From contig JAJZPE010000004.1 in assembly GCA_021811325.1 (NCBI GenBank), positions 1-63,376 of the forward strand: DNA of 63,376 bases. The letters run 5' to 3'. Both the position numbers and the translations under genes were made by a program. Of this stretch, positions 40,469-47,625 are shown in pieces; the first letter of the stretch is position 1; each line of letters begins with the position of its first letter. This DNA is from Bacillota bacterium. Its GTDB lineage: Bacteria > Bacillota > Sulfobacillia > JAJYWN01 > JAJZPE01. Below the pieces are notes generated by a model that saw nothing but the letters and a program-made list of their open reading frames with translations, was not told where the DNA came from and ran no database searches.

Positions 40469-40574
40469 GTTCCAGCGAATACTCTCCCGCGCCGGATGCG
40501 GGGCCGCGGGGCGGCGTCCGGCGGCAAGGCCCATGAACCGGGCGCCAAGGGCAAATCCACGGGGGTGCTCGCAG

Positions 40575-41345
40575 ATGAAAGCGAACGCAGTGGTCATGGC
40601 CGGGCGAGCCAACGAGGGGCGACTCAAGGAAGTCAGCGACGCTGCCTATGAGGCCCTGATCGCCATCGCCGGCCGGCCCATGCTGGACTGGGTCCTGGGG
40701 GCCCTCCGGGCATCCAGCACCATTCAACGCATCGTCATCGTCGGTCCGGAGAAGGTCATCCGGGAGAAGGTCGACCCGCAGGGGGCGACCTTCGTCGAGC
40801 CCGGCGAGTCAATGGTCGAGAACATGCTCCGCGGGGTCAGGTCACTGCCTTCCGACGAGATGGTCCTGGTCGTCTCGTCCGACCTGCCGCTCCTCACGGG
40901 CCACGTCATTGATGATTATCTGGGCCAGTGCGCCGAGAGGAAGGCCGACCTCTACTACCCGATCATCGAGAAGGACGTCATCGAACCCAAGTACCCCGGC
41001 GTCCACCGGACCTACGCCACCCTCAGGGAGGGCACCTACACAGGCGGCAACGTCCTTCTGGTCCACCCGCGGCTGCTCCTGGAGAATTACCAGAAGGCCG
41101 AGGCCTTCGTCGACGCCCGGAAGAGTCCGCTGAAGTTGGCCCAGGTCCTCGGCTTCGGCTTCGTCGTCCGGCTCCTCCTGAAGATGCTTTCGATCAAGGA
41201 ACTCGAGGAGACCATCTGCCGGAACTTCAACCTGTCGGGGGTGGCCGTCGCCTGCCGCGAGGCCGAGATCGGCATCGACGTCGACAAGCCCAGCGACTAC
41301 GAACTGGCCGCCCGGGTGCTCGGCCAGAATAGGCCGGGCGCCTGA
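40575..41345 (+). CDS. MobA-like nucleotidyltransferase family protein
   Basis: AVVMAG, GRPMLDWV, SDLP and DVDKP motifs. Confidence 0.75.
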   Translation: MKANAVVMAGRANEGRLKEVSDAAYEALIAIAGRPMLDWVLGALRASSTIQRIVIVGPEKVIREKVDPQGATFVEPGESMVENMLRGVRSLPSDEMVLVVSSDLPLLTGHVIDDYLGQCAERKADLYYPIIEKDVIEPKYPGVHRTYATLREGTYTGGNVLLVHPRLLLENYQKAEAFVDARKSPLKLAQVLGFGFVVRLLLKMLSIKELEETICRNFNLSGVAVACREAEIGIDVDKPSDYELAARVLGQNRPGA

Positions 41346-42430: not shown

Positions 42431-42492
42431 TGTCGAACGAAACCTGTCGGCTCGAGTCTGACCGTGGAGGATTCGGAGCCATCCGGTCGAAA
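42431..42492 (+). promoter_or_regulatory. Spo0A box plus SigH-like promoter of spoVG
   Basis: TGTCGAA at 42431-42437; GGAGGA-17bp-GAAA at 42466-42492; spoVG is SigH-dependent in B. subtilis. Confidence 0.6.
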
Positions 42493-42541
42493 CCTTGCCA
42501 CCACCCAGATGGGAAAATTTAACAAAGGCGGGTGGTTCGCA

Positions 42542-42820
42542 GTGCAGGTGACCGATGTCCGAGTGCGCAAGGTCTTGCCGGAGGGCAAGATGAAGGCCGT
42601 CGCCTCGGTGACCCTCGACGACGAGTTCGTCGTCCACGACGTCCGCGTGGTCGAGGGGCAGAATGGACTGTTCATCGCCATGCCCAGCCGCAAGACTCCT
42701 GAGGGGACCTTCCGGGACGTGGCCCATCCCATCACCGCCGAGGCCCGGGAGATGATCCAGGCGGCGGTGCTCAAGGCCTACGAGGAAGGAGCCGCCGGCT
42801 TGGCGGCGCGGGTCGGGTAG
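42542..42820 (+). CDS. spoVG: Septation regulator SpoVG
   Basis: [38 protein letters not shown]. Confidence 0.95.
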
Positions 42821-42875
42821 GCGGCGAAGGTCGCGATCCGGGCATCTCGAGGCGGCCGGCCACGTGTGGCCAAAG

Positions 42876-42911
42876 GAAAAGCCCCTTCCGGGTTGGAAGG
42901 GGCTTCGTCTT
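42876..42911. terminator. Probable bidirectional terminator
   Basis: AAAAGCCCCTTCC-GGGTT-GGAAGGGGCTTCGTCTT between convergent genes. Confidence 0.7.
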
Positions 42912-42951
42912 GCCGTTCGCGCGCTTTGGTCGCGCGCCGCGGCCGTCAAGC

Positions 42952-43605
42952 TTACATCCCGGGGACGTGGAGCCAATCCCGGAAGAGGAACTGGAGACGG
43001 CCAATAAACAGAGAGATGCGGGCCATGACGGTGTTGCCGAAAGCGGCGCCCAGGCCGACCATGATCACCCAGCGGCCGAACCAGGCGGGCCAACCGAGCA
43101 GCTTGTTCTCCCTCTTCACGGTGAAAAAGAAGTACGAGAGCGCGGTCAGCAGGAAGACCCAAAACAGGATGTTGTTCAGAGTCTGGGTGAAGATGATGCC
43201 GCCGCCCTTGGCGGAAACGGCGAACTTCGACCCATAGCTATCGACGATCTGCTTCATGAGGACCGCCGGTTGGAAGGCCAGGGTGTAGCCGACGCCGTAG
43301 CCGACCCAGAAGGACATCGGGTAGCGGGCCAGCCAGGACATTTTCGGGAAGTACTGGAAGTAGATCAGCAGACCGATGACGATCGGGACGATATAAATGA
43401 ACTTCCCGTCCTTCAGGATGTCGGTCTGGATCGTTGGCTTGATGTACTGGTCCCAGTTGCCGACGACCCCGAAGCCGGTGGCCAACCCGACGAAGAGATG
43501 CTCGGCCGCGCGGAACACGGGGTTCTCGGCCCAGAGGTAGCTCAGGCAGGCGAATGTCGCGATCGCCCCGACCCAAGCAGCTGTAGGAGTCCAAGTCCAA
43601 GTCAC
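42952..43605 (-). CDS. Uncharacterised membrane protein (gene 4 of DUF6754 cluster)
   Basis: Multi-TM; S.L..ENP.FR.AEH.FVG and FG.TVMAR.SL..GR motifs; GGAGGTG RBS. Confidence 0.75.
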   Translation of the reverse strand: MTWTWTPTAAWVGAIATFACLSYLWAENPVFRAAEHLFVGLATGFGVVGNWDQYIKPTIQTDILKDGKFIYIVPIVIGLLIYFQYFPKMSWLARYPMSFWVGYGVGYTLAFQPAVLMKQIVDSYGSKFAVSAKGGGIIFTQTLNNILFWVFLLTALSYFFFTVKRENKLLGWPAWFGRWVIMVGLGAAFGNTVMARISLFIGRLQFLFRDWLHVPGM

Positions 43606-43653
43606 GCTTTGTCACCTCCCGACATGAGCTGCGGAAGACACTCCGCGCGGTGG

Positions 43654-44475
43654 TCAGGCCTTCTTGCGAAGGACATAGCCGACGTTACCGACGATGATCA
43701 GCAGGATGATCAGGGCATGACCGAGGGACTGCGCGTCCATACCCTTGATGGCGCTCCCGGGGGCCCTGGTCAGAAGTTCATACTCGGCCGCGCCGCGCAT
43801 CCCCGACAGAATCCCCTTGTACTGCCCGGACTTGACGTACGGCATGGCGCCAGGGGCGGAGACGGCGGTCACGCCGACGCTCATCGGGACCTTCTTCGGC
43901 TCGGAGACATACTGGAGGTAGTCCGCGGTGCCGGGGCTGCCGGTGCTCAAGTCGAAGATAAAGGCCACGCTCGAAGAGTCGAGCTTCTTGACCCGCTCCA
44001 TCAGCGGCAACTGGGACAGCGGAGTGCCGTTGACGTCCACGCCGGCCGCGGCGCCCCACAGGTCGTCGGTCATCTGGCGGAGGGTGACCGGGTTGTTCGG
44101 CTTCCAGCCGAGGTTGACCCAGTCCACACCTTCCTTGGCCCCGACTTCCTTGGAGACCTTCTCGGTCCAGTTCTTGGACATCTGGACGCCGTCCTGCCAC
44201 ATGGCGTAGATGACGACCTTGACGCCCTTCTTGAGGGCTTGCCGGAAGATGGCGATGGCCATCGGGTCGAGCTCCGGCGCGCTGGACGGGCCGTAGTCGG
44301 CGCCGATCCAGAGGACGTCACCGGGCTTGAGGGCGTCGACCGCGTTGAAGCCGGTCTCGCTCTCGGTGCTGGTGCTCAAGGGCAACCCCAGGGGCTTGAC
44401 CAGCGGAACGGCGATGGCGATGGCGACCAGCAGGTAGATGACCCGCTTGTCAAGGCTCATAAGCCGGTCCCACAT
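43654..44475 (-). CDS. Uncharacterised membrane-anchored protein (gene 3 of DUF6754 cluster)
   Basis: N- and C-terminal TMs around a soluble domain; DYGPSS.PEL.P, GM.GAAEYE, MDAQS..H motifs. Confidence 0.75.
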   Translation of the reverse strand: MWDRLMSLDKRVIYLLVAIAIAVPLVKPLGLPLSTSTESETGFNAVDALKPGDVLWIGADYGPSSAPELDPMAIAIFRQALKKGVKVVIYAMWQDGVQMSKNWTEKVSKEVGAKEGVDWVNLGWKPNNPVTLRQMTDDLWGAAAGVDVNGTPLSQLPLMERVKKLDSSSVAFIFDLSTGSPGTADYLQYVSEPKKVPMSVGVTAVSAPGAMPYVKSGQYKGILSGMRGAAEYELLTRAPGSAIKGMDAQSLGHALIILLIIVGNVGYVLRKKA

Positions 44476-44531
44476 TCTTCGTTACACCTCCTTGCTGTGG
44501 GCTAAGTGACACGAGTAACGGGAACCGGCCA

Positions 44532-45167
44532 TCACTTCATCCCTGCCCCGCCGACCCCACCGAGGTGGGCCCGCTCGATACCGAGCAAGATGCGGAGCAC
44601 GGTGACGAAGGATCCTAGGTAAGCGCCGATGAGGACGGCGCGCATGGCGGCCGTGTTCGGGAAGCGCATGATCCAGTTGGCCCAGTCCGGGAACCCCTTC
44701 CAGATAGCCTCGCCGATAGGGGCCCGGCCGAGCATGACGATGGCCGCCGAGACCAGGAGGAGGGTCGCCTCCACGGTCCGGATCCGGAACGCCCGGTAGG
44801 CCGCGGTGGCGATGTAGAACGCCAGGAGCGAGAAGATGGTCGAGTCAAGCTGTACCAGGAGGGCGTTGTATAGCCACCGAAAGTTCTGGCCCTTGTAGCC
44901 CTCGACGACGCCGAGGGCGGTGTAACCCCACAAGGCGACGAGCAGCAGGAGGCTGAAGATGTACCCGGCCTTGCGCCGCCTGATGTGGTTGACATGGATC
45001 CTGGTCAGGTTGACGGCCCCGATCAGGAGGGCGAAGGCTTGGCTGATGGTCTGCCACTTGTCCATGGCGTTGATCAGCTGCCATTTCTCGCCGATGGCGA
45101 AGTCATGGCCGAAGATGACAAACAGCCCGGTCAAAATGGTCACGAGCAAGGGCAATTCCTTGCGCAC
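44532..45167 (-). CDS. Uncharacterised membrane protein (gene 2 of DUF6754 cluster)
   Basis: Multi-TM; FSLLAFYI..AAYRAFR.R..EA..LL and P.TAA.R motifs. Confidence 0.75.
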   Translation of the reverse strand: MRKELPLLVTILTGLFVIFGHDFAIGEKWQLINAMDKWQTISQAFALLIGAVNLTRIHVNHIRRRKAGYIFSLLLLVALWGYTALGVVEGYKGQNFRWLYNALLVQLDSTIFSLLAFYIATAAYRAFRIRTVEATLLLVSAAIVMLGRAPIGEAIWKGFPDWANWIMRFPNTAAMRAVLIGAYLGSFVTVLRILLGIERAHLGGVGGAGMK

Positions 45168-45207
45168 TCACGTACACCCCCTTTTCCCTTTGGTGTGCTC
45201 CCCGGGC

Positions 45208-45996
45208 TCACTTCAGAATCCAACTGGTGAGCGGGTTCTTCTTCGGGTCGGCGATGACGTTGGTGATCACGGTCCCGACGATAATCGTCAGGAAGACGAG
45301 GATCTTGAACCAGTCCTCGCCGACGACGGTCCCGAGCAACACCGGGTTCTTGGAAATGTACGCGCTGGCGGCATAGATCTCCTCGCCGATCAGCGTGTAG
45401 TCGCAGGCCGCGACGAAGAAGGGGAGCTGGGCGGTGGACGTTGTGCCGGCGATCTGGATGGCGCCGATCTGGGCGCCGGCCTCGGCCAGGATCAGGGACT
45501 CGGCGTAGAAGTAGCCGATCATGATGTTGGCCGCCGGCTTCTCGCGGGCGAACATACCCAGAAGGGCCGAGGTGTAACCGAACTGGAAGCCCGACAGGTA
45601 CCGGACGTCATCCGGGTTGTAGGCGTCCGGACGACCGGCTTCGAGGTAAGCCTGCTTGATGATTTCCTCGTTCACCGAGTGCACCAGGTAGTTCCGGTTG
45701 GTCTGAATCAACCGGCAGTCGTACTTGGCGCACAGCTGAGCGATGTAGCCCAGGGTATTGAAGAAGGCGAAGGTCTCTGGAGCACTGATACCACCGAGGC
45801 CGGGGGTCGCGTGCACCGGCCGACCCATCTCAGTGGCGCGGCCGATCGACTCTTCCAAGGCCTCGAGGCCGGCGATCTTGCGGATCTCGGGGATCTTCAT
45901 CCCGGCTCTGGCCCGGGTGATGAGGACATAGGTGACGATTCCTATCGCGACGATGAACCAGAAGTCGACAACCATGCCCTTGGTCCAGATTGTCAC
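45208..45996 (-). CDS. DUF6754-family membrane protein
   Basis: IR.IAGL.A.EE.IGRATEMGRP, AESLILAE.G..GAIQIAGT, QLPFF..CDY.LIGEE.YAA; GTG start chosen after AGGAGGTG. Confidence 0.75.
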   Translation of the reverse strand: MTIWTKGMVVDFWFIVAIGIVTYVLITRARAGMKIPEIRKIAGLEALEESIGRATEMGRPVHATPGLGGISAPETFAFFNTLGYIAQLCAKYDCRLIQTNRNYLVHSVNEEIIKQAYLEAGRPDAYNPDDVRYLSGFQFGYTSALLGMFAREKPAANIMIGYFYAESLILAEAGAQIGAIQIAGTTSTAQLPFFVAACDYTLIGEEIYAASAYISKNPVLLGTVVGEDWFKILVFLTIIVGTVITNVIADPKKNPLTSWILK

Positions 45997-46233
45997 TGCT
46001 TTTTTCACCTCCTTCCCCTGCCCAATGATTTAAGCAACGCTGTATTTTTTCATTTCGGTGAAGGTTCCCCGAATCCTTCTGGGGGCCTAAAGTTCTTGGT
46101 CCTAAAGACCCCCTGGTCGGCCGCGTGGGCGTGGCCGGGCGGTCGGGCAAAGCTGGCCGGGCAGGAACGCACCGGGGCGCGTTGAATAACTGCCGGGGCG
46201 CAGGCAACTAACTAATGGTAAGGGGTTGAGGGT

Positions 46234-47625
46234 GTGCCGGAAGTCCGGTGTGTGATCCTGGCCGCGGGCCAGGGCACGAGGATGAAATCGAACCTGCCCA
46301 AGGCGATGCACCCGCTGGCCGGGCGACCGATGGTCGATTACGTGGTCAGGGCGGCCACCGCGGCCACTGGCGAAAGGCCGCTGGTCGTCGTGGGCTACGG
46401 GCGAGAACTGGTCGAGGCCGCCCTCGCCGGGCGGGCCGACTTCGTCGTCCAGAAGGAGCAGCTCGGCACGGGGCACGCGGCCGCTCAGGCCGCCGAGAAG
46501 CTGACCGGCTTCCGCGGGACGGTGGTCGTGCTCCCCTGCGACACGCCCCTCATCTCCCCCCGGACGCTGGCCGACTTCATCGCCACCCACGAGCGGGCGG
46601 GGGCCGCCGTGACCGTCCTCACCGCCGCCCTCGAGGACCCGTCCGGTTACGGCCGGGTCATCAGGTCGGCGGACGGCCGGGTGACGGCCGTGGTCGAGGA
46701 CCGGGACGCCACCCCGGAACAGCGGGCCATCCGGGAGATAAACACGGCCATCTACTGCTTTGACAGCCAGACCCTCTTTGCCGCCCTGCCGCGGCTGAGA
46801 CGGGACAACGCCCAGCAGGAATACTACCTGCCGGACGTGGTCGAGCTGACCCTGGCCGACGGCCGCCCGGTCCACGCCTACCAGGCCGGTGACCCCGACG
46901 AAGTGAGCGGGGTCAACAACCGCCGCCAGCAGGCCCAGGCGGAAGCCGTCGTCCGCCGGCGCACCCTGGACCGCCTGATGGACGAGGGGGTGACCGTGGT
47001 CGACCCCGAGACCACTTTCATCGACGACACCGTCAAGGTCGGACCGGACGTCACCGTCTTGCCCTTCACCTTCATCAGCGGGGAGAGCGAGGTCGGGCCG
47101 GAGTGCCGCCTGGGTCCGGCGGCCGACATCCGCGACTCGCGGCTCGGCCGGGAGTGCGTCGTCCAGTACTCGGTGGTGGAGAAGAGCGCGGTCGCCGACA
47201 GGGTGACCATCGGCCCCTTCGCCCACCTCCGCGCGGACAATGAAGTGGCCTCGGACGTCCGCGTCGGCAACTACGCCGAGATCAAGAACTCGCGGGTCGG
47301 CCCGGGGACGAAGATCTCCCACCACAGCTACATCGGGGACGCGGACATCGGGGGCGAGGTCAACATCGGGGCCGGCGTGGTCGTGGTCAACTTCGACGGC
47401 CTGAGAAAGCACCGGACCGAGATTGGCGAGGGGGCCTTCATCGGCTGCAACAACAACCTGGTGGCCCCGATGAAAGTCGGCCCGGGGGCCTACACGGCGG
47501 CCGGCTCCACTCTGACCAAGGACGTACCGGCCGACGCCCTGGCCGTCTCCCGCGAGAGACAGCAGGTCCACCTGGCCGGGTGGGCCCGCCGACGCAGGGA
47601 AAAGGCGAACAAGGAAGAACCCTGA
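46234..47625 (+). CDS. glmU: Bifunctional UDP-GlcNAc pyrophosphorylase / glucosamine-1-P acetyltransferase
   Basis: ILAAG.GTRMKS, QLGTGHA, GYGR, EINT, EYYL, hexapeptide repeats, HHSYIGDA. Confidence 0.96.
   Translation: MPEVRCVILAAGQGTRMKSNLPKAMHPLAGRPMVDYVVRAATAATGERPLVVVGYGRELVEAALAGRADFVVQKEQLGTGHAAAQAAEKLTGFRGTVVVLPCDTPLISPRTLADFIATHERAGAAVTVLTAALEDPSGYGRVIRSADGRVTAVVEDRDATPEQRAIREINTAIYCFDSQTLFAALPRLRRDNAQQEYYLPDVVELTLADGRPVHAYQAGDPDEVSGVNNRRQQAQAEAVVRRRTLDRLMDEGVTVVDPETTFIDDTVKVGPDVTVLPFTFISGESEVGPECRLGPAADIRDSRLGRECVVQYSVVEKSAVADRVTIGPFAHLRADNEVASDVRVGNYAEIKNSRVGPGTKISHHSYIGDADIGGEVNIGAGVVVVNFDGLRKHRTEIGEGAFIGCNNNLVAPMKVGPGAYTAAGSTLTKDVPADALAVSRERQQVHLAGWARRRREKANKEEP

Follow-up and report, generated by a model that had tools for sequence, protein, structure and literature searches.

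Gene organization of the locus

The stretch of DNA analyzed here (hereafter the window) covers 63,376 nucleotides of contig JAJZPE010000004.1 from a Bacillota bacterium of the class Sulfobacillia (GCA_021811325.1), and harbors four consecutive membrane protein genes between spoVG and glmU. The encoded proteins are designated subunits A to D, and A carries the domain of unknown function DUF6754 (PF20539). All four are intact open reading frames (ORFs) on the minus strand, separated by intergenic gaps of 40, 56, and 48 bp, and each start is preceded 7-9 nt upstream by a ribosome-binding site of the AGGAGGTG type. This agrees with an earlier sequence-only reading of the locus, which described four co-oriented genes with strong ribosome-binding sites and 40-56 bp spacing, and the common terminator that it placed after the set is also present, as a 12-bp G+C-rich stem (GAAGCCCCUUCC/GGAAGGGGCUUU) followed by UUUUCCUUU, 46 nt past the stop codon of D. 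The stretch containing this hairpin (42862-42952), which was overlooked by a simple terminator scan, folds at -43.3 kcal/mol (z = -3.75). A-B-C-D is thus one real four-gene operon. The true start of A is probably the GTG at 45996, which fits the spacing of the ribosome-binding site (the GTG at 46008 does not) and is equivalent to the start of a 262-amino-acid (aa) homologue (P0001) that is 93% identical to A. The operon promoter presumably lies within the intergenic region between A and glmU, where no match to the sigma-70 consensus was found.

The sequence-only reading further held that the set splits the spoVG-glmU pair, a view upheld by comparison with related genomes. The genes purR, spoVG, and glmU are directly adjacent in five class-level relatives (L103, L104, L105, L108, and L113), and spoVG and glmU are separated by an A-B-C-D set in the window, in L110 (genome G203, same order), in G201 (same genus), and in the metagenome-assembled genome (MAG) locus L022, whose flanking proteins are only ~50% identical to their window counterparts. 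The adjacency in relatives of the class, together with the split in these four places, indicates that the set was inserted into an ancestral spoVG-glmU pair long ago. Recent horizontal transfer was considered and rejected, since the third-codon-position G+C content (GC3) of the A-B-C-D genes (0.87-0.91) is the same as that of the flanking genes and thus gives no sign of it. Adjacency of the set to glmU is limited to one order. In G201 (L112 and L116), the spoVG match is broken into fragments, one of them with internal stop codons, and spoVG lies ~5 kb from the A-B-C-D set, compared with 0.13 kb in the window.

The wider neighborhood consists of ispE, a MobA-like nucleotidyltransferase gene, purR, and spoVG on one side of the set and glmU, prs, and the L25 gene (ctc) on the other (Table 1). 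The position of the MobA-like gene is kept in L022, L104, L105, and L108. Sequencing runs containing the window stretch are only DNA metagenomes, from mine drainage and sediment.

Table 1. Coordinates of the A-B-C-D operon and associated features within the window
Feature	Position	Strand	Remarks
MobA-like nucleotidyltransferase (NTP_transf_3)	40533-41345	+	between ispE and purR
spoVG	42464-42820	+	flank of the A-B-C-D set
Intrinsic terminator of the A-B-C-D operon	~42871-42906	-	between convergent D and spoVG
Subunit D	42952-43605	-	217 aa; no family match
Subunit C	43654-44475	-	273 aa; no family match
Subunit B	44532-45167	-	211 aa; no family match
Subunit A (DUF6754)	45208-45996	-	262 aa; probable GTG start at 45996; ORF also open from GTG 46008
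Divergent intergenic region A/glmU	45997-46233	.	no strand assigned
glmU	46234-47625	+	flank of the A-B-C-D set, other side

A conserved four-family unit and its soluble partners

The window genome contains three DUF6754 genes and three complete A-B-C-D sets, located on contigs C224 (the window), C150, and C194. The paralogous sets share 44-62% identity protein by protein. For A, B, and C, the copy on C150 is nearer to the window set than the one on C194, while D is about equally close in both, a pattern that whole-set duplication would produce. All four families occur on a single strand and in this order in both other copies of the genome and in nearly all of 100 related loci. Within a sample of the phylum, A-B-C follow in order in 19 of 20 loci, to the limit of the DNA available for each locus. 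A scan with one genome per species recovered 593 relatives of A, and nearly all of the best 80 loci, which were analyzed by ORF clustering, display the order A>B>C>D, frequently in tandem arrays. These 80 loci span more than 15 phyla, including Bacillota (Symbiobacterium thermophilum and Fermentithermobacillaceae), WOR-3, Zixibacteria, Latescibacterota, Planctomycetota, Poribacteria, Sumerlaeota, and Marinimicrobia, so that the co-occurrence and neighborhood analyses proposed in the sequence-only reading speak for a shared unit. Carriers comprise nitrifiers, anammox bacteria, sponge symbionts, and numerous lineages without cultured members, and belong to phyla of the Gram-positive as well as the Gram-negative type. 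In the window's phylum the occurrence is patchy, the system being encoded by 14 of 201 genomes with 1-11 sets each. The set is present in 12 of the 21 genomes of the window's class, and none of 14 control genomes encodes a DUF6754 set. The A family alone forms more than 8000 clusters at 90% identity, all of them unnamed or labeled 'DUF6754 domain-containing'. Counts that depend on the greedy ORF caller are lower bounds, as it was confused by long antisense ORFs in high-GC loci, and the ORF families f8, f11, f12, f20, and f21 are calling artefacts. Collectively, the four families form a conserved unit, A-B-C-D, and duplication involves the entire set.

Two individual loci depart from this organization. 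L016 (G101:C1, ~2.55 Mb), from a complete genome of the same phylum, encodes a divergent A-like gene (E 4e-25) and a C-like gene, between which B was undetected. L043 (1255-2598) contains a 447-aa ORF with a C-like stretch followed by a B-like stretch, possibly a rearrangement, a frameshift, or an assembly artefact. Subunit fusions were considered as evidence for assembly, and none of those among the loci is convincing.

A is a full-length member of PF20539 (315 bits against a gathering score of 27 bits; E 3.3e-94; positions 10-249 of 257), its only match, and neither Pfam nor NCBIfam has a match for B, C, or D. When each of 65 B and 69 D homologues was compared with Pfam at E <= 1, only scattered hydrophobic noise was obtained (TMD0_ABC, DUF373, and DUF3704); neither these homologues nor A-D themselves (Pfam, NCBIfam) contain an ATP-binding cassette (ABC) ATPase or a BPD_transp_1-type permease. 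Profile searches of the PDB with the alignments of A, B, C, and D yielded no credible match, none of the four matches an anti-phage defence family of PADLOC at E <= 0.01, and no conserved cysteine clusters or flavin motifs are found in their alignments. The literature searched contained no paper mentioning DUF6754 or PF20539, and nothing relevant on the GlmL/ASKHA side discussed below. A-B-C-D therefore has no detectable relation to characterized families.

In ~20 of the 80 loci, as well as at the C150 set of the window genome, an additional module adjoins the set upstream or downstream. It encodes an ASKHA ATPase of 600-640 aa that matches PF13941 ('MutL', E 5e-122) and a 370-450-aa protein, P5, with an RnfC_N barrel-sandwich domain (E 4e-7, above the Pfam cut-off), often along with S6 (~120 aa) and a small protein with two transmembrane (TM) helices. 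These soluble partners, namely the GlmL-clade ATPase, the RnfC_N-like P5, and the small protein, are encoded elsewhere in the window genome and were overlooked in the sequence-only reading. The ATPase falls far below the NCBIfam equivalog cut-offs for both GlmL (226 vs 475 bits) and Or-4 (219 vs 600 bits), and PDB profile searches with the partner proteins returned nothing specific. Of the 201 phylum genomes sampled, 14 encode DUF6754, 13 encode P5, and 12 encode both (Fisher p = 1.8e-16). Along with its three A-B-C-D sets, the window genome encodes four ATPase/P5 pairs. Three are close ones, of which two are located on C150 and the third is divided between the ends of C114 and C157, and the fourth, on C213, is divergent. 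The A-B-C-D unit is thus linked to the GlmL-clade ATPase/P5 module at the genome level, and the window set is a stand-alone membrane module with its soluble partners encoded in trans.

The fullest copy of the system lies in the same genome (C150:70274-82465), where a small two-TM protein, A-B-C-D, a MutL-like ATPase (638 aa), and P5 (454 aa) are followed by an opposite-strand lipoprotein, S6 (220 aa), a second MutL-like ATPase (622 aa), a second P5 (373 aa), and an amidohydrolase; DppA, DmpA-type, DUF4438, and M20 genes are located upstream. One ATPase/P5 pair of the genome lies among the housekeeping genes tdk, dprA, and topA. In addition, ord, ortA, and ortB, together with genes for an aminomutase-like protein, an Or-4-type GlmL, and a racemase, make up a canonical cluster for ornithine fermentation at C185:59000-70000, indicating that the genome holds a true GlmL-family accessory gene as well as the distinct clade associated with A-B-C-D.

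Other neighbors of the system are heterogeneous, and Opp ATPases, PtsI, PurF, and GcvPB appear in a few loci each. In four Latescibacterota-type loci (L049, L056, L061, and L093, from MAGs labeled Latescibacterota or Gemmatimonas), an Opp-type peptide ABC importer, including its substrate-binding protein (SBP), is interspersed among the genes of the system, giving the arrangement MutL-SBP-OppB-OppC-P5-A-B-C-D-OppD-OppF, after which comes a ~1200-aa protein with peptidase and TolB-like parts; L049 contains OppD and OppF, and SBP and OppB/C are absent from that locus. The Bacillota loci C150, L023, L026, and L034 are flanked by aminopeptidase, M20, DUF4438, and amidohydrolase genes. This gene context weakly suggests amino acids or peptides as the substrate class. 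The gene immediately preceding A is purF in three distant lineages and gcvPB in three loci, a context that likewise hints weakly at amino-acid or peptide metabolism. Either purF or a whole pur operon precedes A in L027, L029, L030, and L032 (Fermentithermobacillaceae), L037 (WOR-3), and L051 (Latescibacterota); the window set is also near purR and prs, although a link to the pur context may be coincidence.

Predicted folds and membrane orientation of the subunits

AlphaFold2 models built with family alignments predict the same architecture for A and C, consisting of a TM helix, an alpha/beta domain, and a second TM helix. In A (mean predicted local distance difference test, pLDDT, 94.5), the TM helices span 13-34 and 222-251 and enclose a domain at 46-219, which is composed of one helix followed by six strand-helix units; in C (pLDDT 96.9), the helices are placed at 10-26 and 241-272 and the domain at 37-235. 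The sequence-only reading had recognized an alpha/beta domain between TM segments in one of the proteins; the domain is present, but in two subunits. Mean column identity is highest for A (49%, 79 sequences), followed by C (37%, 71 sequences), D (32%), and B (30%). Characteristic motifs of A are GRATEMG, AESL.LAE, and ACDYTLIGEE, and the acidic residues singled out in the sequence-only reading are indeed conserved among the 79 sequences, E170, E176, and E209 in at least 90% and D203 and E210 in all of them. However, the acidic motifs are located at strand ends and helix starts of the soluble, probably cytoplasmic domain, outside the membrane helices, and the ion coupling that had been deduced from them finds no support. 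In C, conserved residues are concentrated near the membrane, in a GAAEYE helix and as polar Q/H/N positions in TM2.

The charge distribution suggests that the two domains face opposite sides of the membrane. The N-terminus of C holds 3.0 K+R on average and its C-terminal tail is RKK, which by the positive-inside rule would place both ends inside and the alpha/beta domain outside. In A, the segment directly after TM1 is strongly basic, and Latescibacterota homologues carry a signal peptide and an extra ~130-aa domain ahead of TM1; together, these features point to an N-out topology with the conserved domain in the cytoplasm. The signal peptide and N-terminal domain are encoded in the A genes of L093:9539-10759 and L056:9509-10744, and the ~130-aa domain has no Pfam match.

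Foldseek comparison of the models with the PDB retrieved, for A, the MurR SIS domain, a LOG-type molybdenum cofactor (Moco) carrier protein, quinone reductase, and OtsA, and for C, Rossmann domains of the alcohol dehydrogenase/short-chain dehydrogenase/reductase (SDR) type, quinone reductase, and OtsA. The secondary-structure elements of A and C follow in the same order and the weak neighbors quinone reductase and OtsA are common to both, which fits an ancient duplication whose sequence similarity is gone. Homology between A and C was supported by neither hhalign (probability ~1%) nor BLASTP, which found nothing, and the same outcome was obtained for B and D.

B contains six TM helices and a conserved boundary motif (FYIA.AAYRAFR.R). 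Among its 65 homologues, the inside loops hold 11.6 K+R compared with 4.2 outside, suggesting that both termini are cytoplasmic by the positive-inside rule. No membrane-embedded acidic residue is conserved in the B alignment. D has five or six TM helices, and conserved polar residues in or near these segments include N28 and E35. The K/R profile of its 69 homologues (7.9 in the putative inside loops vs 2.9 outside, with an ambiguous basic C-terminal tail) indicates that D is probably N-out, hence opposite to B.

Possible function and relation to known systems

Judging from anatomy and paralogue behavior, a transporter function is most likely. Somewhat short of even confidence, we favor the view that A-B-C-D forms the membrane part of a translocation system of an undescribed kind, which probably serves nutrient uptake. 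The outer domain of C would bind or select the substrate, and B (N-in) and D (probably N-out) would form the membrane core and translocation pathway. The cytoplasmic domain of A, with its invariant acidic/polar patch, may link this pathway with the ATPase module or serve as the binding site for a ligand in the cytoplasm, and the GlmL-clade ASKHA (actin/Hsp70-fold) ATPase, P5, and S6 would be the soluble parts of the machine. Translocation is favored because of the more variable outward domain, the apparently opposite orientation of the polytopic pair, the conserved cytoplasmic domain, and the paralogue expansion in tandem arrays. The presence of 1-11 sets per genome, the tandem duplication of whole sets, and the greater variability of C and the TM subunits relative to A are likewise transporter-like behavior. 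The proposal of a hetero-oligomeric membrane complex of an undescribed class, made in the sequence-only reading, therefore stands as far as the four-gene unit and the lack of any characterized match (by sequence for A-D and by fold for A and C) are concerned, but the reason given there for ion coupling finds no support. A more specific and rather unlikely version is a translocase of two mutually inverted halves, A plus B and C plus D, powered or gated by the ASKHA ATPase. One half would consist of A (N-out, domain inside) and B (N-in), the other of C (N-in, domain outside) and D (N-out), and the drive would come from an actin/Hsp70-fold ATPase instead of an ABC, P-type, rotary, or AAA+ motor.

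Several observations weigh against the translocation system. No sequence likeness of A-D to any characterized transporter was found, the Foldseek TM-scores of A and C reach at most 0.38 and reflect generic Rossmann-like matches only, and the physical assembly of A-D into a hetero-oligomer is suggested by synteny alone. The window set has no ATPase neighbor, its partners being located elsewhere in the genome, most sets are stand-alone four-gene operons, and other genomes do not encode as many sets as P5 paralogues (e.g., 1 vs 7 and 2 vs 9). Among 71 operon-like neighbors, no family recurs beyond the ATPase module, and the peptide/amino-acid context is limited to a few lineages. No regulator or riboswitch indicates a ligand; Rfam gave no match at E <= 1 in the window region, and searches of the sequences preceding 20 other sets detected no riboswitch either. 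Finally, the extreme conservation of the A domain would also fit an enzyme.

An alternative scenario, which we consider doubtful, is that the system is a machine for cell-envelope biogenesis or export, in which A acts as an enzyme or a nucleotide-sugar/phospho-ligand module, B and D flip or export the product, and C handles it outside. A is the most conserved subunit, and its invariant polar/acidic cluster (E170, Q194, D203, E209, and E210) occupies the strand ends of a Rossmann-like fold, where ligands or metals are usually bound, with SIS, LOG-type, and GT-B-like domains as its weak fold neighbors. The location of the window set beside glmU and prs among housekeeping genes, the similar surroundings of one ATPase/P5 pair (tdk, dprA, and topA), and the occurrence of the system in Gram-positive-type as well as Gram-negative-type phyla are also in keeping with such a role. 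However, up to 11 diverged sets per genome would be odd for a core biogenesis machine, as would the patchy presence in 14 of 201 phylum genomes and in 0 of 14 controls. Moreover, no glycosyltransferase, polymerase, or lipid-carrier gene recurs among the neighbors, and the adjacency to glmU does not extend beyond one order.

An ion-coupled secondary transporter, or an ion channel, operating independently of any ATPase, with the GlmL-like module being separate or merely regulatory, appears improbable; it is the reading nearest to the ion-coupled complex of the sequence-only reading. The stand-alone four-gene operons (the window set included), the differing numbers of sets and P5 paralogues within genomes, and the conserved polar residues in or near the TM segments of C (Q/H/N of TM2) and D (N28 and E35) would suit it, but the acidic motifs of A belong to a soluble domain, B has no conserved membrane-embedded acidic residue, and the B and D homologues resemble no secondary-transporter family. 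The very strong genome-level co-occurrence with P5 (12 of 14; p = 1.8e-16) likewise argues against this explanation.

Even less credit is due to a transmembrane sensor or scaffold, in which C would sense a ligand outside and A would recruit or regulate the ASKHA ATPase module inside, which in turn runs a cytoplasmic reaction, e.g., of an ATP-dependent amidohydrolase, kinase, or chaperone type. Such an arrangement is consistent with one domain on each side of the membrane (A inside and C outside), with the amidohydrolase and peptidase genes that adjoin Bacillota loci, and with the enzyme-reactivating chaperones that are known members of the ATPase clade (PF13941), the partner ATPase itself scoring below the GlmL/Or-4 cut-offs. 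However, an output domain (kinase, cyclase, or DNA-binding) is never fused or adjacent, two conserved polytopic subunits exceed the needs of a sensor, and tandem arrays of whole sets are untypical of one.

Least probable is an Rnf/Nqr-like ion-translocating complex without recognizable cofactors, in which P5 would correspond to RnfC/NqrA, B and D to the inverted six-TM pair RnfA/E (NqrD/E), C to RnfG/NqrC, and A to an anchored cytoplasmic subunit. RnfA and RnfE are ~210-aa proteins of about six TM helices with opposite orientation, as B and D appear to be, the RnfC_N match of P5 exceeds the Pfam cut-off (E 4e-7), and of the two bitopic subunits, one exposes its domain outside and the other inside; but no Rnf-Nqr or FMN_bind match was obtained even at E <= 1 with 65-69 members per family, the alignments contain neither conserved cysteine clusters nor flavin motifs, the fold of C is Rossmann-like instead of FMN_bind, and a counterpart of RnfD/NqrB is absent.

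The A family is very large, shows strong conservation, and occurs in more than 15 phyla, yet no functional name or solved relative was found for it. If the system is a translocase, it would extend the known ways of crossing the cytoplasmic membrane by a new architecture, and possibly by a motor of a new kind in the form of an ASKHA ATPase, and would fill a gap in metabolic models of the organisms that carry it. The window provides a simple entry point, a stand-alone four-gene operon in a Bacillota genome; the system is also present in a cultured relative, Symbiobacterium thermophilum, and sites for mutation can be chosen from the confident models of A and C.

Among known families and systems, PF20539 has no assigned function and covers A only, not B, C, D, or the operon. 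The partner ATPase matches PF13941 in common with GlmL/MutL and Or-4, which are accessory to B12-dependent mutases (PF13941, NF040745, and NF040744), but it differs from them in scoring far below the equivalog cut-offs, in an extra C-terminal region of ~130 aa, and in its neighbors, which are P5 and A-D, with no mutase. With Rnf/Nqr, the system shares the RnfC_N-type barrel-sandwich of P5, ~210-aa, six-TM subunits (B and D) that may be inverted, and bitopic subunits with domains on either side, but A-D lack an Rnf-Nqr/FMN_bind match, cofactor motifs, and an RnfD/NqrB equivalent. The overall plan is similar to that of binding-protein-dependent ABC importers such as Opp, which likewise combine an outward alpha/beta receptor domain, two ~6-TM subunits, and a cytoplasmic module tied to an ATPase, which expand by paralogy, and whose Opp genes are interleaved with the A-B-C-D system in Latescibacterota. 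However, A-D have no ABC_tran, BPD_transp_1, or SBP match, the associated ATPase is of the actin/Hsp70 fold, and the receptor-like and cytoplasmic domains of A-B-C-D are each held by two TM helices. The likeness of A-B-C-D to ABC importers is one of functional analogy, not of membership.

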